Shown: positions 1,277 through 46,814 of the stretch, piece after piece | How the letters are laid out: every line of letters begins with the position of its first letter | How positions within the stretch are numbered: the stretch's first letter is position 1 | DNA from: Omnitrophica bacterium GWA2_41_15 | Lineage (GTDB): Bacteria > Omnitrophota > Gorgyraeia > Gygaellales > Profunditerraquicolaceae | DNA length: 61,754 nucleotides | Direction of reading: 5' to 3' | Assembly: GCA_919902045.1 (NCBI GenBank) | Contig: CAKKSP010000021.1 | Coordinates: forward strand, 1-61,754 | Program-made: the position numbers and the translations under genes | The notes under the pieces: generated by a model | What the model saw: only the letters and a program-made list of their open reading frames with translations | Databases searched by the model: none | Told to the model about the DNA's origin: nothing

Positions 1277-3213
1277 TTATACATCACCGGCGCTAAATTA
1301 AGCGCCTTACGTTTATTATCAATATGCGCAATCATCTTTTGCGCCATCACCTTGGGATCATCGCAAAAATCAAATCTTCCGCCGGTAACTCCTTCTATCT
1401 CATGCGTTAGATATTCAGTCAAATTTTTACTGCCTAATACCGCAAACGGGTTAGCTCCGAAGATTGTGTAAACTCCGGAAGCCACAAAATAAAATCCGAT
1501 AGTAATTGCCTTCTCAGACATCCATTCAGGAGCAGCACCTGCTGCCGGGATATCGCTTAAATCCGTACCCAAACCTCCTTCGGCAATAATAGCTGAAGCT
1601 GCAGTTAGAATACGGCTATTATCTACACATGAGCCAAGATGCAGTACTGGAGGGATCCCTACTGCCTCACAAATTTCCTGCAAACCTTTACCTGCATATT
1701 TTATTGCTGCTTCAGGCACTAAAAGCCCTTGTTTTGCGCAGGCAATCGCAGAGCAACCGGTCTGTAAAACCAAAACATCATGCTTTATCAATTCTTTAAC
1801 CAGTTCGGTATGAAAATAATCATGCGTCTGCCTGGGATTATTACAGCCGACAACTCCTGCTAAACCACGCAACCTTCCTGAAATAATTGCTTCGTTAAGT
1901 GGTTTATAAGTAGAACGATAATGGCCGCCAAGCATCTGAAAGATCACTTCCTTGGTAAAACCAGCGACCAGATCCATCTCTTCTTTAGGAATATTTATTT
2001 TCTCTTTATTACGGCAGGAGAAATTTTCCACCCCCATTTTAATGATTTGCTTTGCGGTTTCATAAGCATCTTTAGGATCAAATTCAACATGGATTACTCC
2101 CGGAAAACGCGCTTTGGAATTTGTTGTTACAAGTTTTGTATGGAAACAGCTTGCGACCTCTTTGAGCGCTGGCATAATACACTGCACATCTACCATCATT
2201 ACCTCAACTGCTCCTGTGACAATAGCAAGTTCCTGCTGCAGAAAATTTCCGGCAACCGGTATACCATGACGCATTAGTACTTCATTTGCCGTACAACAGA
2301 TACCAGCTAAATTTATTCCTTTTGCTCCAACGCTTTGCGCAAGCTTAAGTAATTCCGGATCTTGTGAAGCCCTTACTGCCATTTCCGATAAAACCGGTTC
2401 ATGTCCATGCACAACAATATTAACGTGATCCTCTTTAAGTACACCTAAATTAACTTTTCCTCTTATTGGCTCGGGGCTTCCTAAAATAATATCCTGAACA
2501 TCTGTTGCAATCATTGAACCGCCCCAGCCATCAGATAAAGCGCAGCGCAACCCCGACTGGATCAGATTTTTATAGTCGTTATCTACACCCATTGTTGTAG
2601 TATGCAAAAGTTCCACTACCTCCCGGTCAATCCCGCGCGGAGTAATCCCCAGGCGCTTCCAGATCTGTTGGCGCTTTTGCGGAGCGCGTTTTGTAAAGGT
2701 GAGCTCTCCTTCCTGCTTACCAAATTCTTCAAGCAGTTTTTTAGAAAGCTCTTTTGCTATCTGCTCCTCAGGCTTATTTATATCTATGCCAAATTCTTCT
2801 GCTAAAACTTTTAATTTTTCCGGGTCAAGAATTCCGTATTCATGGCTATGGCCGTGACCGTGTTTATCTGTACCATGATTCTGATTTTTCGTAATTAGCG
2901 ATAATGCATTTGCCACATCTCTTCCATGGTCTGAATGAGCTGACGCTCCGACGGCAATTTTGCGCGCTAAATTACGCGCAGCAATCGTATCGGCATTTGC
3001 TCCGCATACACCAACTTGAGCTCCTTCTCCAAACGGATCGATCCGGCAAGGCCCCATGTTACAAACCGTGCAACATACCCCGAGTTGCCCAAAACCGCAT
3101 TGAGGCTGCTGCAGCTCAAACCGATCCCATACAGTCTGGATATCTTCTTTTTCCGCTTTCTTGAGCATCTCTTGCGTTGCTTTATCTATGGATTTTTGTT
3201 TAACGTCGGACAT
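1264..3213 (-). CDS. cooS: anaerobic Ni-dependent carbon-monoxide dehydrogenase catalytic subunit
   Basis: Carries the N-terminal cluster signature CGFGQLGVCCTVCNMGPCRI. About 650 aa, the typical CooS length. Start trimmed from the ORF-track 3240 to ATG 3211-3213, which is preceded by AAGGGGGAA (a strong RBS). Confidence 0.9.
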   Translation of the reverse strand: MSDVKQKSIDKATQEMLKKAEKEDIQTVWDRFELQQPQCGFGQLGVCCTVCNMGPCRIDPFGEGAQVGVCGANADTIAARNLARKIAVGASAHSDHGRDVANALSLITKNQNHGTDKHGHGHSHEYGILDPEKLKVLAEEFGIDINKPEEQIAKELSKKLLEEFGKQEGELTFTKRAPQKRQQIWKRLGITPRGIDREVVELLHTTTMGVDNDYKNLIQSGLRCALSDGWGGSMIATDVQDIILGSPEPIRGKVNLGVLKEDHVNIVVHGHEPVLSEMAVRASQDPELLKLAQSVGAKGINLAGICCTANEVLMRHGIPVAGNFLQQELAIVTGAVEVMMVDVQCIMPALKEVASCFHTKLVTTNSKARFPGVIHVEFDPKDAYETAKQIIKMGVENFSCRNKEKINIPKEEMDLVAGFTKEVIFQMLGGHYRSTYKPLNEAIISGRLRGLAGVVGCNNPRQTHDYFHTELVKELIKHDVLVLQTGCSAIACAKQGLLVPEAAIKYAGKGLQEICEAVGIPPVLHLGSCVDNSRILTAASAIIAEGGLGTDLSDIPAAGAAPEWMSEKAITIGFYFVASGVYTIFGANPFAVLGSKNLTEYLTHEIEGVTGGRFDFCDDPKVMAQKMIAHIDNKRKALNLAPVMYKWEK

Positions 3214-5587: not shown

Positions 5588-5594
5588 ATGTTAG

Positions 5595-5672
5595 AGGGCA
5601 CTTCTTCAGGGACATTTCTTAACATGCAAACAATATCTTAAGAAATGTCCCTAACTGTTAAAAAGTGTCCCT
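5595..5672. repeat. nested double-palindrome intergenic repeat, diverged copy
   Basis: AGGGCACTTCTTCAGGGACATTTCTTAA-loop-TTAAGAAATGTCCCTAACTGTTAAAAAGTGTCCCT. It has the same architecture as the 17630 and 46735 copies and overlaps the last folD codons. Confidence 0.8.
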
Positions 5673-17616: not shown

Positions 17617-17629
17617 AAGTCGTCTTTTT

Positions 17630-17708
17630 AGGGACACTTCTTACAGGGACATCTCTTGACAGGCAAATTACTTGTTAAGAGATGTCCCTAACGTTAAGAA
17701 GTGTCCCT
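17630..17708. repeat. nested double-palindrome intergenic repeat (about 79 bp)
   Basis: Outer arms AGGGACACTTCTTA / TAAGAAGTGTCCCT. Inner arms AGGGACATCTCTT / AAGAGATGTCCCT. Nearly identical to 46735-46814, differing by one indel. Confidence 0.9.
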
Positions 17709-17734: not shown

Positions 17735-18865
17735 TTATTTTAAATTTGTAATCTCCGCGCCCGGATAATAATATTGTAAAATCTTGTGATAATCAAACCC
17801 GGCTTTCGCTTGAAAATATGCTCCCCACTGGCACATTCCCACTCCATGGCCCCAGCCTACACCTTCAAAAACAGCATCTTTTCCCACTACCTCTACGGTA
17901 AGATGAAGGCTCTTTATATAATTCGGCCCAAGTGCCGCACGCAGATTTTTAGCAGAAATATCTACGGGGTTACCTTCGCTTGTAATCCGTAAATTAGCGG
18001 CTCTAGAGGAAGCAGTTTTATCTAATATAGCCATAGATTCAATAGGGCCTGTTTTAATTCCGTAATCAAGAAGCTTTTCTCTAATTTTACGCAGAGAAAA
18101 ACTCGCTTGCCAATAATAATGCGGAGAGTTTGTGCAATAATTACAAACTACTCCTTTTAACGGCGCTATATCTATACTCCATAGAACCGAGGCATCTTCA
18201 GTATGGCCTCCGCAACAGGCATGGTAATAAGTAGGAAACCCCTGGCCGTTAAAATCTAAAACTTGTCCACGCGTCTCTCCAACTGCTTTGTTGGTACGAT
18301 AACGCTCAGAAGTTTTCCCGCCGTAAACTTGCGAATAAATATCTGCGGTGAGATCATAATCTTTATTTACAGGGTAATTGACCTGATAAACGGCATAACT
18401 TCTACTTACCACTGCTTGAGCCTTCAGGGCCTCAAACGGCCAATAATGCGAAACTTCATGATATAATATGCCTTTAATATAATCTTCAAGACCCAGATGA
18501 TTTACAGCTAAAAGCTTACCCGATGTTTGCAAAATAAACTCTATATCCCCTCTAAAATAACGATTATCAAGAGCTAACGAACTTAAATTAGCATCAGTAC
18601 GAATTCGCAGGCGCTTAATAGGAAAAAATTTTCCTCCTACAAAAATACCTCCTTCCCCAATAGCAACCGCGCTATTTAGATCTTTACCGCGCAAAAGAAT
18701 ACGTTCGGCTTGTGTATCTTCTATTTCATATAGACCTCGAATTTTAAGTTGAACGGAAGAAAAATCGCGATTTACCGCAATCCTTACCTGGCTAGATTCT
18801 TGAGCATAAAGATTGACTAATAATCCGATGCTACAGAAAAAAATTACCAGAAAAAATTTTCGCAT
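17735..18865 (-). CDS. SpoIID/LytB domain-containing protein (peptidoglycan-remodelling amidase enhancer family)
   Basis: Signal peptide. Motifs LEDYIKGILYHEV, ALKAQAVVSRSYA, CCGGHTE, WGHGVGMCQWGA. Confidence 0.8.
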   Translation of the reverse strand: MRKFFLVIFFCSIGLLVNLYAQESSQVRIAVNRDFSSVQLKIRGLYEIEDTQAERILLRGKDLNSAVAIGEGGIFVGGKFFPIKRLRIRTDANLSSLALDNRYFRGDIEFILQTSGKLLAVNHLGLEDYIKGILYHEVSHYWPFEALKAQAVVSRSYAVYQVNYPVNKDYDLTADIYSQVYGGKTSERYRTNKAVGETRGQVLDFNGQGFPTYYHACCGGHTEDASVLWSIDIAPLKGVVCNYCTNSPHYYWQASFSLRKIREKLLDYGIKTGPIESMAILDKTASSRAANLRITSEGNPVDISAKNLRAALGPNYIKSLHLTVEVVGKDAVFEGVGWGHGVGMCQWGAYFQAKAGFDYHKILQYYYPGAEITNLK

Positions 18866-18867
18866 AC

Positions 18868-19398
18868 TTACCGCTTAAACCTTTCAACCTCTGAATAAAT
18901 ACAACCACAGTAGTTTTGACAATAAATACCTTGCTCTTTTGCTTCCTGATGCGCTTTGCGAAATCCAGGACGAAAATCCGTATAATAAAACTCTACCCCT
19001 ACCTCTTTTGCAACATCCTCTCCTATATCCTTAATTGCTTCTTGATTTTGATATGGACTAACTAACAAAGTGGTAGAAAAATGGCTAAAACCTTTATTTT
19101 TTGCCTCTAGTGCGGTCATGCCCAAACGCAGTTTCCAACATATACGGCAGCGGCGTTCCGGGTCTTCTTTTAGATATACAGCGCGGAAAAATTCAGCAGG
19201 CACATATTCAGGCACTTGCACCTGCATCTTATTATCTTCTGCCCATTTAATCACCGCTTCTTTTCTGCGCTGATATTCACTTAAAGGATGAATATTCGGA
19301 TTATAAAAAAATCCCTCAACCGAAAAACCCTGCTCGCACAAATAGCGGTAAGGATAAATCATGCACGGAGCACAACAAGTATGCAAAAGTAATTTCAT
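18868..19398 (-). CDS. queH: epoxyqueuosine reductase QueH (DUF208)
   Basis: MKLLLHTCCAPC N-terminus and C-terminal YCGCIYS. Start placed at ATG 19396-19398 rather than the GTG at 19416. Confidence 0.8.
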   Translation of the reverse strand: MKLLLHTCCAPCMIYPYRYLCEQGFSVEGFFYNPNIHPLSEYQRRKEAVIKWAEDNKMQVQVPEYVPAEFFRAVYLKEDPERRCRICWKLRLGMTALEAKNKGFSHFSTTLLVSPYQNQEAIKDIGEDVAKEVGVEFYYTDFRPGFRKAHQEAKEQGIYCQNYCGCIYSEVERFKR

Positions 19399-19471
19399 AA
19401 TAGGTTGCAATGTCACAAAACCAAAGTGTTAAATTTCTTGTGTAATTCTGCTCATATTAATAGATTTTCCA

Positions 19472-19641
19472 GGTCAACGTCTGCCTGGACAATTTTGCTC
19501 GGGAACGCTCGCTTTTTCCCGGCGTGAAAAAGCTTCGCTCGGGGTAGGCTGCGTCGCTCTCCTATATAAGTAAAACGAAGGGAACCATGCCCGCTCCTTG
19601 CCTACACGTCCCGCTCAAAAGTTGTCCAGTCACCCGTTGAC
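19472..19641 (+). ncRNA. candidate structured RNA or MITE-like element E1 (170 nt, closed by an interrupted helix of about 27 paired positions)
   Basis: GTCAACG (19473-19479) pairs with CGTTGAC (19635-19641). TGGACAATTT pairs with AAAGTTGTCCA with one U-G that works only on the plus strand. CGGGA pairs with TCCCG. There is an internal hairpin GCTTTTT-N9-AAAAAGC. GC looks higher than the flanking DNA. Strand and function are uncertain. Confidence 0.3.
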
Positions 19642-19649
19642 TTATAATA

Positions 19650-19885
19650 TATATAATCTCCTGTCAATTCTAGCGAGCGAATGTAGATTTTAGCCAATGC
19701 AGCTTGAGCAGTGAGGGCATCCCAAGGCCACAGAGTGGCAATCTTGGGATGGCTGATATTGTCTGAGCCCCGCCGCCAGAAAGCGGCGGGGCGAGTTCAT
19801 CAGCCACCGAGATGCGAAAGATCATTGGCGAGCCCCGAAAGGGCAAAATCTACTTGAGCGAGCAGAATTGATAGGAGATTATATA
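19650..19885 (+). ncRNA. candidate structured RNA or MITE-like element E2 (236 nt, about 40-bp closing helix plus GC-rich internal hairpins)
   Basis: Left arm TATATAATCTCCTGTCAATTCT..GTAGATTTT pairs with right arm AAAATCTAC..AGAATTGATAGGAGATTATATA. The single G-T is compatible only with a plus-strand RNA. Internal hairpins: 19718-19751 (9-bp stem), 19751-19805 containing CCCCGCCGC-CAGAAA-GCGGCGGGG, and GCCC-CGAAA-GGGC. By eye it does not match RNase P, tmRNA or SRP signatures. Confidence 0.35.
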
Positions 19886-19955
19886 GTAGAACTAAGTGCA
19901 CGGCAAAAATAATCCAGCACGAAAGTACAATATCCTGAAGGCATAATTTATAAGA

Positions 19956-21044
19956 TTATTCCTTAAACAACTCTTCTTGTTTATCTTTATTATAGGTTAA
20001 CCCGAAGTGCTCAAAGGCAAGCTTGGTTGCCAGGCGGCCGCGAGAGGTACGTTTAAGGTATCCAGTTTTCAAAAGATACGGCTCGATAGTATCGGTAATA
20101 GTATCCACTTCTTCGTTAAGGCTGGCAGCAAGAGACTCTGCGCCAACAGGCCCTCCGTCAAAAGAAGTAAGAATGAGTTTAAGCAGTTTCCGGTCCAGCT
20201 CATCAAACCCGGCTTTATCAATACCCAAATCGCTAAGTGTTTTTTTTGCCCCCTCAAGAGTAATTTTTTTTACTCCTAGAACCTGGGCATAATCACGCAG
20301 GCGCCTTAAAAGCCGGTTAGCAATACGCGGAGTACCGCGGCTTCGCCGTGCCGTTTCTTCTGAAGCATCGGTATCAATTTCTACACCGAGCGTCTTTGAA
20401 GAAGCTGTAATAATTTTGGATAGGTCTTCGAAAGGATAAAAATCAAGGTAACAGAATATTCCAAAACGGCTACGCAGCGGAGAAGAAAGTAATCCTGCGC
20501 GAGTAGTAGCGCCCACCAAAGTAAAAGGTTTTAAATTAAACTTAATGGTTTTTGCGTAAGGCCCTTTATCAATCACAAAATCAATCTGAAAATTTTCCAT
20601 TGCAGGATAGAGAAACTCCTCTACCACCTTTGATAAACGGTGTATCTCATCGATAAAAAGAATATCGCCTTTTTCCAAATTTGTCAGGATTCCTATAAGG
20701 TCACCGGCGCGTTCAATGGCAGGCCCTGAAGTAGCGGTTATTTTTGTTCCCATTTCATGGGCAATAATATGTGCAAGGGAAGTTTTTCCTAATCCGGGAG
20801 GGCCGCTTAAAAGCACATGCTCTAAAGGTTCCTGACGCTGCTTTGCAGCAGTAAGGCATACTTTTAAATTTTCTATTGTTTCCTTCTGGCCTACAAAATC
20901 ACCCAGTTGTTGCGGACGTAAAGATAGGTTTAATACAACCTCTTCCTCGGTTTCCTGGGCTTGGCGAAGGTAAAGATTCTCATCCTGCAGGCCAGGTTCT
21001 TTTGGGCTATTCTTTAAGAGCTTCTTGGTTATCTCTTCGGCCAT
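19956..21044 (-). CDS. ruvB: Holliday junction branch migration ATPase RuvB
   Basis: LRPQQLGDFVGQ, Walker A GPPGLGKTSLA, Walker B LFIDEIHRL, GATTRAGLLSSPLRSRFG. It has an N-terminal extension of about 30 aa. Confidence 0.95.
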   Translation of the reverse strand: MAEEITKKLLKNSPKEPGLQDENLYLRQAQETEEEVVLNLSLRPQQLGDFVGQKETIENLKVCLTAAKQRQEPLEHVLLSGPPGLGKTSLAHIIAHEMGTKITATSGPAIERAGDLIGILTNLEKGDILFIDEIHRLSKVVEEFLYPAMENFQIDFVIDKGPYAKTIKFNLKPFTLVGATTRAGLLSSPLRSRFGIFCYLDFYPFEDLSKIITASSKTLGVEIDTDASEETARRSRGTPRIANRLLRRLRDYAQVLGVKKITLEGAKKTLSDLGIDKAGFDELDRKLLKLILTSFDGGPVGAESLAASLNEEVDTITDTIEPYLLKTGYLKRTSRGRLATKLAFEHFGLTYNKDKQEELFKE

Positions 21045-21783
21045 AAGGTAAAATATTATTGATATTGCGGCTAATCTCTATTTCTCCGAAAAGGCCTTTC
21101 TGCTGGGCAACAATTTCCTTCATGCGGATAAGCTCTAAGGTTGATAGAAATATTACCACTATTTCAAGCTTATTTTTTGCACGAGTAAAAAGCTCAAAGA
21201 TTGATACTGAAGGCCGGATAAGCAAAAGATGCAATATCTCGTGAATTTTCCCTTCAATGCTGAATTCATCTTTAATTACTTCATAAAAAAGCTCTCTGGG
21301 GATATCCTTCATTGCCTGGGAAAAAGCATTGATAAGGTCAAAAATACTTGCCTCAAAATAAACCTCTTGTTTTTGCTCTTTCTCATCTACTTCAGAAACC
21401 TTTTCTTGTATTTTAGGGCGCGTAAAAATATCTCTTTGCTTCTGTTCGCGCTCTTTAAGCGTCTGCGCGATTTCTTTAAATTTTTCATATTCAAGTAATC
21501 TGCGTATCAATTCCGCACGCGGATCTTCTTGAAGCTCTTCCTGCGCAGTCTCGACGATCGGAAGAAGCATCTTTGATTTAATTTGCATAAGGGTAGCTGC
21601 CATTACTAAAAATTCACCCGCGATATTAAGATCCATCAACCGCATCAATTCCAAATACTGTAAGTACTGTTCGGTAACTTTTGATATCGGAATATCATAA
21701 ACATTGAGGTGATCTTTTTTAACCAAATATAACAATAAATCAAGCGGGCCTTCAAAAATCTCAAGCCTTATTTTATAACTCAT
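21007..21783 (-). CDS. scpA: segregation and condensation protein A
   Basis: FEGPLDLLLYLVKK..L.VYDIPI..VTEQYL, typical of ScpA; 258 aa. Confidence 0.85.
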   Translation of the reverse strand: MSYKIRLEIFEGPLDLLLYLVKKDHLNVYDIPISKVTEQYLQYLELMRLMDLNIAGEFLVMAATLMQIKSKMLLPIVETAQEELQEDPRAELIRRLLEYEKFKEIAQTLKEREQKQRDIFTRPKIQEKVSEVDEKEQKQEVYFEASIFDLINAFSQAMKDIPRELFYEVIKDEFSIEGKIHEILHLLLIRPSVSIFELFTRAKNKLEIVVIFLSTLELIRMKEIVAQQKGLFGEIEISRNINNILPYGRRDNQEALKE

Positions 21784-46694: not shown

Positions 46695-46734
46695 CTCTAA
46701 AAAACCTACCTTTCTATAGTTGATTTGTTAAATT

Positions 46735-46814
46735 AGGGACACTTCTTACAGGGACATCTCTTGACAGGCAAATTTACTTGTTAAGAGATGTCCCTAACGT
46801 TAAGAAGTGTCCCT
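46735..46814. repeat. nested double-palindrome intergenic repeat (about 80 bp)
   Basis: Same sequence as 17630-17708 except for one extra T in the loop. Lies between lptB and tig. Confidence 0.9.

Follow-up and report, generated by a model that had tools for sequence, protein, structure and literature searches.

The 61,754-nucleotide DNA stretch considered here and called the window (contig CAKKSP010000021.1 of Omnitrophica bacterium GWA2_41_15) comes from the Omnitrophota, which are uncultivated, mostly ultra-small bacteria. It holds 56 open reading frames (ORFs) of at least 80 amino acids, every one on the minus strand, with nearly no intergenic spacers. The sole gap longer than 150 nt lies between queH and ruvB (19417-19955, 539 nt); its GC content is 0.47 versus 0.398 for the window overall, with local values of 0.53-0.56 across 19650-19874. 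An earlier note, made by reading the sequence, had rightly pointed to this gap as the only long gene-free one in a GC-poorer 56-gene array, and had described in it a 236-nt element closed by a long helix, proposed as a novel non-coding RNA (ncRNA) or a MITE (miniature inverted-repeat transposable element). This element, called module B below, is the subject of the present analysis, together with a second structured unit in the remaining gap, module A, which the note overlooked along with its fixed polarity to B. The ncRNA proposal holds insofar as module B is structured, covarying and without a match in Rfam; it does not hold for a unique RNA gene, since the element is one copy of a dispersed, insertion-like family. 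Module B is not a solitary RNA gene, nor is it a miniature transposon of the usual kind. The locus comprises the following features:

18868-19416, minus strand: queH (Pfam QueH, E 4e-61), the flanking gene on the A side, given for context and not part of the element.

19470-19645, plus strand (B-strand coordinates): module A, about 170 nt; profile match with E 1.9e-32.

19650-19885, plus strand: module B, whole unit, 236 nt; profile E 2.5e-50 with a model from 100 homologues.

19956-21044, minus strand: ruvB, the other flanking gene (Pfam RuvB_N/AAA_lid_4/RuvB_C).

The window itself contains exactly one A and one B. The ruvB gene is convergent with the plus strand of B, designated B(+), and its stop codon lies 70 nt from the B 3′ end; as had been remarked, a plus-strand transcript would be antisense to every gene of the window (56 of 56 ORFs on the minus strand). 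The ruvB-adjoining site holds A and/or B in several related species too. The RuvB protein of the window is found in identical form on two Hainich groundwater metagenome contigs, where the entire gap is 100% identical as well.

The earlier claim that the 236-nt element is structured beyond chance is borne out by its folding energy: the minimum free energy of the plus strand is -124.1 kcal/mol, compared with -68.8 +/- 4.7 kcal/mol for 200 dinucleotide shuffles (z -11.7, no shuffle as good), and that of the minus strand is -115.1 kcal/mol (z -10.6). The fold common to the family consists of a closing helix of 20-22 bp, a symmetric purine loop, helix P2, a three-way junction, a purine-rich near-invariant core and three variable or optional peripheral hairpins. 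In the window copy its parts, all on the plus strand, are:

19650-19671: 5′ arm of the closing helix P1, with the outer sequence TATATAATCTCC here and the family consensus AAATGAAyCTG.

19864-19885: 3′ arm of the closing helix P1, supported by the fold, the inverted repeat and covariation.

19672-19682: 5′ half of the purine internal loop, AGCGAGCGAAT, consensus GAGCGAAUG; nearly invariant in 100 copies.

19854-19863: 3′ half of the purine internal loop, TTGAGCGAGC, consensus CUGAGCGAG; nearly invariant in 100 copies.

19683-19691 (GTAGATTTT) with 19845-19853 (AAAATCTAC): helix P2, 9 bp, supported by the fold and covariation.

19693-19699 (GCCAATG) with 19823-19829 (CATTGGC): helix P3, with covarying pairs UA:72/AU:26 and CG:87/GC:11.

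19700-19717: 5′ strand of the conserved core, CAGCTTGAGCAGTGAGGG; its columns vary little or not at all in 100 copies.

19718-19751: hairpin P4, CATCCCAAG...CTTGGGATG; double changes in 7 of 8 pairs.

19751-19805: helix P5′, GGCTGAT/ATCAGCC here; the family keeps only the inner GGC/GCC, plus conserved joining strands.

19767-19792: GC-rich hairpin P5, enclosed by P5′; double changes in 7 of 7 stem pairs.

19806-19829: 3′ strand of the conserved core, ACCGAGATGCGAAAGATCATTGGC, the stretch from which the search pattern was taken.

19832-19844: hairpin P6, GCCC-CGAAA-GGGC, optional in the family.

Helix P1 contains 22 bp, namely 13 perfect pairs, one G-T and 8 further pairs, as an inverted repeat that is 95% complementary, and its columns covary family-wide (for example AU:57/CG:27 and AU:48/CG:31). 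In the symmetric purine loop, 19672-19682 lies opposite 19854-19863, the family form being GAGCGA/GAGCGA. The earlier description of this region was correct for the 13-bp, G-T and 8-bp segments, the internal loop and the 9-bp P2, but not for the heptamer said to be common to both loop strands, which is AGCGAGC and not GCGAGCG: the latter occurs on the 5′ loop strand only, the 3′ strand reading GAGCGAGCA. All the inner helices that it listed are present, i.e. P3 (seen as GCCAATG/CATTGGC), P4, GGCTGAT/ATCAGCC with its GC hairpin, and GCCC-CGAAA-GGGC. In about one third of the copies, two Watson-Crick pairs of P2 (UC:GA) are swapped for a cross-strand GA/GA mismatch. In the core, the segment CUU-GA-GCA faces UGC-GA-AAG at 19813-19820, with supporting pairs 83-85/269-271 and 89-91/264-266. 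A protein-coding nature of B was rejected: its two short ORFs have no Pfam match, and the optional hairpins and indels of the homologues exclude a conserved frame.

A RuvB scan of the genome collection yielded 80 loci, nearly all from Candidatus Omnitrophota metagenome-assembled genomes (MAGs), with RuvB identities of 63-80%. In these loci, nhmmer detected B in five and A in seven; altogether 11 of the 80 are occupied, all within a conserved trpS-scpA-ruvB-queH-spoIID-queA block. A degenerate pattern derived from the most conserved stretch, AGCCNCCGAN-N{1,2}-TNCGAAANANCNTTGNC, matched at least 118 metagenome contigs (freshwater sediment, groundwater, stratified lakes), and profile searches gave about 115-125 B matches, partial ones included, and about 50 A matches. 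Two degenerate patterns had no match in viral contigs, and blastn gave no A or B match in phage and plasmid records. With the taxonomy of the metagenomic contigs inferred from the similarity of the subset having ruvB or queA neighbours, the B family seems restricted to one clade of Candidatus Omnitrophota.

The structure is maintained by abundant compensatory changes in these homologues, in agreement with the earlier view of a conserved non-coding structured element. RNAalifold applied to B from six species predicted 75 pairs, 38 of them with compensatory double changes. On a larger scale, the structure of the window copy was projected onto an alignment of 100 distinct copies (alignments were made with MAFFT and profile hidden Markov models): 84.9% of the cells are paired versus 74.3% after shuffling, double changes occur in 52 of 76 pairs versus 38.1 +/- 2.0, and compensatory cells number 877 versus 321 +/- 19. 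The covariation score is 0.273 compared with 0.105 for shuffled alignments (0 of 500 as good) and stays at or below 0.078 in slid controls, where the partners are shifted by 1-3 columns, a comparison in which the use of the window copy as source of the structure favours that structure over the slid controls.

Conservation is unevenly spread over module B. About 60 unpaired junction nucleotides are nearly invariant; the near-invariant unpaired or junction stretches are GAGCGAAUG, UUUUAGCCAAUGGAGCUUGAGCA, GGGAyGGCGA, UGUUUGAG, CCUGAGCGAGAAAA and CGAGUUC-GCAGCCrCCGAAAUGCGAAAGAUCAUUGGCGU. The peripheral hairpins vary: P4 has three architectures across the family, P5 is represented by 84 distinct hairpin sequences in 90 copies, and P6 is missing from about half of the copies and reaches up to about 120 nt in locus L005. 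This pattern of invariant junctions with variable or optional hairpins is that of functional RNAs. Among 34 pairs of copies judged orthologous by a flank identity of 0.76 or more, B equals or exceeds the adjacent coding DNA in conservation in about 24, with B versus flanking coding identities of, for example, 0.973/0.873, 0.964/0.857, 0.939/0.829 and 0.927/0.783. Since neutral intergenic DNA would be expected to be much less conserved than coding DNA at such distances, the copies must be either constrained in place or renewed site-specifically.

A separate feature of a few copies is a small GC-rich hairpin, CCTGCCTG(A/C)CGGCAG(G/A)CAGG, inserted in P2 of three of them (L132, L115 and L150; alignment columns ~50-69). 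A related hairpin, TTGCCTGCC-TTTA-GCAGGCAA, is inserted elsewhere in the L005 copy (L005:5398-5420). These extra hairpins may represent a tiny hairpin insert nested in module B.

Regarding the strand, B(+) folds better than B(-) in 100 of 100 copies (mean -110.0 versus -96.2 kcal/mol), and G.A mismatch cells largely outnumber C.U cells (379 versus 74). Judged from these stabilising G.A loops and from the modelled folding energies, B most probably works via its plus strand.

The first question raised by such an element is whether it belongs to a known RNA class. The gap is GC-rich, highly structured, the sole long one of the window and next to queuosine genes, all of which would suit a conventional RNA with a single function, such as a divergent 6S, signal recognition particle (SRP), RNase P or tmRNA, or a riboswitch or leader of queH or ruvB. 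Yet a scan with the 4227 families of Rfam 15 gave no match at the gathering score in the whole window, no match at E<=10 in 19300-20050, and none at A or B at E<=5 in 20 homologous loci, as the earlier note had anticipated in finding no resemblance to known families. As far as covariance models allow, housekeeping RNAs (6S, SRP, RNase P, tmRNA), known riboswitches, self-cleaving ribozymes, group I/II introns, HEARO and ROOL/GOLLD/OLE/raiA would thereby be excluded. The distribution is also at odds with a conventional RNA: about 90% of the metagenomic B copies lie away from ruvB, queH and queA, the orientation to the neighbours varies, the favoured strand in the window is antisense to all genes, some contigs have several copies, and the site is empty in most related species. 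A conventional housekeeping RNA or queH/ruvB leader is effectively excluded by these distribution data, and this whole explanation is hardly credible. In particular, a queH/queuosine leader or riboswitch was rejected, as most copies are elsewhere and antisense, and as the neighbours are diverse, with no constant sense position. The literature searched contains no description of an Omnitrophota ncRNA family or of a comparable repeat (one broad query was uninformative). Near one B copy, at a distance of about 70 nt, L105:2633-2942 gives a sub-threshold match to the Rfam cspA thermoregulator (49.7 bits for a gathering score of 78, E 8e-10), probably a cold-shock gene leader unrelated to the modules.

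The neighbours of B are housekeeping genes (CysS, MurJ, LpxB, MreB, UvrD, RecJ, TilS, methionine-salvage enzymes, QueA), and no neighbour protein family occurs in more than 11 loci. Some loci, e.g. L148, L113, L193 and L159, have several modules per contig. The termini of B are sharp, with the conserved sequence AAATGAAyCTG...CAGrTTCATTT (in RNA, AAAUGAAyCUG...CAGrUUCAUUU), and the flanks are merely AT-rich. Such a multi-copy, dispersed unit may be non-autonomous mobile DNA, in which an enzyme encoded in trans would act on a folded single strand and the structure would be kept for mobilisation; the element would then resemble a giant REP/BIME or an IS200/IS605 PATE (HUH/Y1, RAYT-type), or would depend on another recombinase that leaves no target-site duplication (TSD), with A and B as head-to-head end or partner modules. 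This explanation is possible, though somewhat unlikely. In line with it, at no boundary offset in 100 copies do direct repeats of k>=3 rise above permuted controls (for k=2 the B boundaries give a weak signal, 0.13 versus 0.07), and the flanks themselves are not conserved. The orientation of B is also strongly biased: of 76 loci, 55 have B(+) antisense to both neighbours and 11 have it in sense orientation. Finally, several contigs end inside B, as expected for a repeat. On the other hand, the flank profiles reveal no conserved target or target-adjacent-motif (TAM)-like motif on either side, and no enzyme is recurrently linked. When 75 upstream neighbours and the largest neighbour clusters were scanned with Pfam and PADLOC, no recurrent recombinase, transposase, reverse transcriptase, integrase, RAYT, TnpB/IscB, nuclease or defence partner came up; AbiJ, IS256 and GIY-YIG matched single neighbours only, the one IS256-type insertion being the only transposase, and no RAYT gene occurs in about 1.3 Mb of loci around the copies. 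No pair of copies exceeds about 96% identity: the median pairwise identity is 77% and the maximum 96.4% (pairs with a shared flank), the best pairs with unrelated flanks reaching about 93-94%, all of which are between-genome values as the copies were drawn from many genomes. Moreover, about 60 near-invariant junction nucleotides combined with covarying optional hairpins exceed the usual needs of an enzyme-binding end, the copies are conserved like the flanking genes or better, and the favoured B strand of the window would lie on the leading-strand template and not on the strand exposed at replication.

The classical MITE was rejected as such (MITE definition: PMC3184786). Terminal inverted repeats with conserved termini are present, as in MITEs; the middle positions, however, covary like an RNA helix, and TSDs, near-identical copies and a parent insertion sequence were not found in the loci around the copies. 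No B copy in the profile matches from scattered contigs is interrupted by an ORF, the inserts being of 40 nt at most. The combination that the earlier note had associated with a MITE, many near-identical copies flanked by TSDs, was thus not encountered, the copies being many, diverged and free of TSDs.

At least eight contigs begin or end inside B (L090, L096, L098, L110, L128, L142, L143 and L146), which is above random contig-end expectation and fits assembly graphs breaking at a repeat with core stretches of ~30 nt identical between copies. One 4-kb contig has two B copies in inverted orientation, L159:1390-1607(-) and 2739-2954(+), which are 92% identical, have flanks about 90% similar and each lie next to queA-like sequence; this pair is an inverted segmental duplication and not a transposition. 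An association with tRNA genes was also considered: Arg-CCG (twice) and Val (twice) genes lie about 10-170 nt from A or B in 4 of 60 loci scanned (L095:3132-3204, L125:5454-5526, L140:306-379 and L121:11082-11158), a frequency too low for an association.

The ruvB-queH site illustrates how occupancy changes at one intergenic position. It is empty in most of the 80 species, and A and/or B lie at most 4 kb from ruvB in 11, in either orientation. The states encountered, with the corresponding loci, are:

empty (about 100 nt): L006, L008.

B alone, antisense: L016, L184, L083.

B, sense: L155.

A alone: L017, L003, L020, L004.

A and B, antisense: the window.

A and B, sense: L005.

decayed A or B fragments beside an intact B: L014, L011.

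These differences in presence, absence and orientation at a single site, and the truncated or nested fragments, are insertion-like and would suit mobile DNA; the empty sites come only from distant relatives (~70% identity), which are too diverged to set insertion boundaries.

Module A has its own closing helix (GTCAACG 19473-19479 / CGTTGAC 19635-19641), and in six species 24 of its 35 predicted pairs have compensatory changes. In 37 loci A is located 5′ of B on the same strand, with no other arrangement found (never downstream, never on the opposite strand); the spacing is within 150 nt in 21 of them and 150-1300 nt in 16. A and B belong to one system. In the 13 widely spaced pairs examined, one best ORF takes up the spacer; these ORFs lie on either strand and belong to unrelated families, among which are an AbiJ-domain protein, an IS256-type transposase, a recurrent Cys-rich protein of ~170 amino acids and several proteins without a Pfam match. 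Two comparisons are instructive in this respect. In the closely related loci L018, L113 and L177, the gene on the 3′ side of B is common to all and the 5′ side is wholly different, and one orthologous site has B-only, gene+B and A+gene+B alleles (L192, L186 and L181). It follows from these 5′-side differences and from the allele series that the 5′ side of B is a spot of gene gain and loss.

The bracket signature TTT(T/C)(C/G)GAGC ... G(C/A)GAGAAA occurs 61 times on the plus strand of B and 9 times on the opposite strand of A, for a background of 4-6. Taken by itself, this signature suggests a closing architecture common to A and B and a head-to-head placement of the two; a profile search with reverse-complemented A and B gave no significant homology (E 0.47 and 2.1). 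Both the suggested head-to-head pairing and the fixed A-B arrangement, which sometimes encloses one cargo gene that varies and may point either way, would be natural for mobile DNA. An improbable but broader proposal is that A and B supply the RNA part of a novel Omnitrophota system, either mobile and centred on RNA or guided by it. An enzyme encoded in trans would recognise the folded modules, and might also copy or insert them, with the A|B junction as a landing site for single accessory genes. Such a system would be to bacteria what SINE-like or guide-scaffold elements are elsewhere, without a described relative.

Integron attC sites are imperfect palindromes of 57-141 nt located between co-oriented single-ORF cassettes in arrays, with or without intI. 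An attC/cassette array was rejected here, as the modules are single among housekeeping genes, are of two types, and have a cargo of one gene in either orientation. As to the recurrent Cys-rich spacer protein (motif GCCCFHCWPxTWE ... LECHESGPE, no Pfam match), it is found at three distinct loci and in both orientations relative to the modules: L156:482-1000(+), L181:1429-1944(-) and L104:6201-6710 (+ in locus coordinates, antisense to A/B; = L157).

The position of B relative to genes brings in another rival explanation, in which B is a cis-acting operon element on the ERIC/REP/bcr model: a stable structure behind a stop codon, acting mostly as minus strand, would tune the 3′-end stability, processing or termination of the mRNA, or insulate neighbours from antisense or read-through transcription. 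In 32 of 72 loci, a convergent gene, the one preceding B in operon direction, has its stop codon no more than 8 nt to either side of the B 3′ end. Most copies are in co-directional arrays, where read-through is expected; both strands are very stable, and the degree to which orthologous sites are conserved would suit a role under local selection. Dispersed repeats known from the 3′ ends of genes are likewise co-transcribed and affect mRNA stability (PMC3184786). However, a stabiliser or terminator needs only a stable stem, which leaves the ~60 invariant unpaired nucleotides and the multi-junction core unaccounted for; the better-folding strand is usually the one absent from the host mRNA; there is no U-tract on either side; about 14-20% of the copies are oppositely oriented and equally conserved; and the A-to-B polarity has no obvious role. 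A cis-acting element is for these reasons considered quite unlikely. A flanking sigma-70 promoter or intrinsic terminator was rejected too, because only a -10-like TAnAAT was found, overlapping the B start in 20 of 96 copies, without a -35 or U-tract.

The interpretation favoured here, in a tentative manner, is that A and B represent a new family of dispersed structured-RNA modules, seeded by insertion, kept by selection and acting through the plus-strand fold. The modules would act as folded nucleic acid, most probably as plus-strand RNA. This RNA could be freed when longer transcripts are cut in the closing duplex, as long as a substrate of the RNase III type; such cleavage would account for the lack of a conserved promoter or terminator. 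The invariant junction core might then bind a partner encoded in trans, more likely a protein than a ligand. Copies would be seeded by non-autonomous insertion without target duplication, mostly directly behind stop codons; the tolerated orientation would mainly be that in which the host mRNA has the inactive complement, and the copies would then be retained by selection.

Several observations weigh against this interpretation. No conserved promoter or terminator surrounds B, with no -35 and no U-tract on either side; in operon contexts, the host mRNA certainly carries the minus strand. G-U and A-C cells in the helices of B are balanced (235 versus 279 over 100 copies), so that the strand call rests on purine loops and the energy model, and the single G-T pair that the earlier note had used as strand evidence loses its value. 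DNA energy parameters give the strand asymmetries of both A and B likewise, a point in favour of mobile DNA, so that folding by itself does not tell a role as RNA from one as single-stranded DNA. For module A the favoured strand is ambiguous, as folding energy prefers the minus strand in 35 of 36 copies, in conflict with G-U counts that prefer the B-parallel plus strand (30/13 versus 22/31). The copy number may reach tens of modules per genome, by a very rough extrapolation from scattered contigs (~1 extra module per 75 kb). Finally, the high conservation of B could come from repeated site-specific re-insertion or gene conversion and not from selection on each copy.

Comparison with known systems helps to situate the family. 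The Bacillus cereus group has dispersed repeats, the bcr1/bcr group B elements, that are intergenic and measure 150-310 bp; bcr1 is transcribed, compensatory changes keep its cruciform-like RNA structure, and relatives do not share its genomic distribution (PMC3184786). Its copies are flanked by 5-bp direct repeats, and its structural stability was judged to have been lost repeatedly (PMC3184786). Module B is likewise a dispersed intergenic repeat with compensatory changes, but differs from bcr1 by the absence of TSDs, a fold kept in 100 of 100 copies, a multi-junction core with long invariant unpaired stretches, a polar partner module, and conservation across many species whose RuvB proteins are only ~70-80% identical. 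ERIC (IRU) and Correia/NEMIS elements are imperfectly palindromic repeats of transcribed intergenic DNA that often lie at the 3′ ends of genes and may affect how mRNA is processed; they are simple hairpins of ~100-160 bp with terminal inverted repeats, TA or other target duplications and a species- or family-level distribution (PMC3184786). They have in common with B the intergenic location, often at gene 3′ ends, and the long terminal complementarity, whereas B is ~230 nt long with three branches, no TSD and a strong antisense bias.

REP/BIME elements are multi-copy and extragenic, lie just behind stop codons, form inverted pairs of two unit types and produce no target duplication; REP units are simple GC-rich hairpins of ~20-40 nt, and the RAYT is a Y1 HUH gene. 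Compared by this description only, A and B are similar in being multi-copy, adjacent to stop codons, readable as a head-to-head A(-)/B(+) pair and devoid of TSDs. They differ in size (170 and 230 nt, 5-8 times larger), in their complex conserved cores and in the absence of a RAYT near any copy examined. In IS200/IS605 PATEs and TnpB/IscB omega-RNA systems, left and right ends are structured without terminal inverted repeats between them, there is no TSD but a strand bias, and a structured RNA of ~150-250 nt lies at one end. A and B resemble derivatives of this group by their distinct structured modules, lack of TSD, strand and orientation bias and non-autonomous copies, but have no linked tnpA, tnpB or iscB and no target or TAM motif at their flanks; unlike omega-RNA, B is closed by its own helix and has no obvious guide segment. 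Rfam has HEARO/IS605-related models, none of which was returned at A or B in the scans. Orphan large ncRNAs (raiA, ROOL, GOLLD, OLE, HEARO) usually occur in one or few copies per genome and in typical gene neighbourhoods. Module B recalls them by a size and complexity pointing to a sophisticated biochemical role, by conserved junction nucleotides and by variable peripheral stems, and departs from them by its dispersed, orientation-biased, insertion-like occurrence and the absence of Rfam matches to those classes. By analogy, B seems most like transcribed structure-conserving repeats (bcr1/bcr group B, ERIC) and REP/BIME pairs, from which it differs in size, fold complexity, absence of TSD, breadth of conservation and polar two-module organisation with a gene-accepting junction.

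A fold of ~230 nt with more than 100 representatives, strong covariation and a near-invariant core is the signature of an RNA whose biochemical task is demanding, and none of the compared repeat families joins this orphan-RNA signature with dispersed-insertion behaviour and a polar partner. Were the element to act at the RNA level, it would offer a tractable entry to the question of how structured RNAs spread and become domesticated in compact genomes; at the DNA level, it would extend REP/PATE-type biology to far larger and more elaborate folds. In practice, the B alignment can be converted to a covariance model, so that these loci no longer remain unannotated or mis-called as small ORFs in MAGs.

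Some further features of the window deserve mention. The GC skew of the plus strand is mostly negative across the sampled 18000-21450, and gene strand and GC skew together suggest that the window lies on one replichore, with all genes co-oriented with replication. The called scpA and ruvB ORFs overlap by 38 nt (21007-21044), an overlap that recurs in related loci and reflects either translational coupling or an over-extended ruvB start. Lastly, a separate palindromic intergenic repeat of ~80 nt, TTAGGGACACTTCTTACAGGGACATCTCTTGACAGGCAAATTTACTTGTTAAGAGATGTCCCTAACGTTAAGAAGTGTCCCT, with AGGGACA-type units, is present at 17628-17708 and 46733-46814, as two copies 29 kb apart that are 98-100% identical, and as a diverged third copy (~65% identical) at 5591-5671; it looks REP-like and unrelated to modules A and B.

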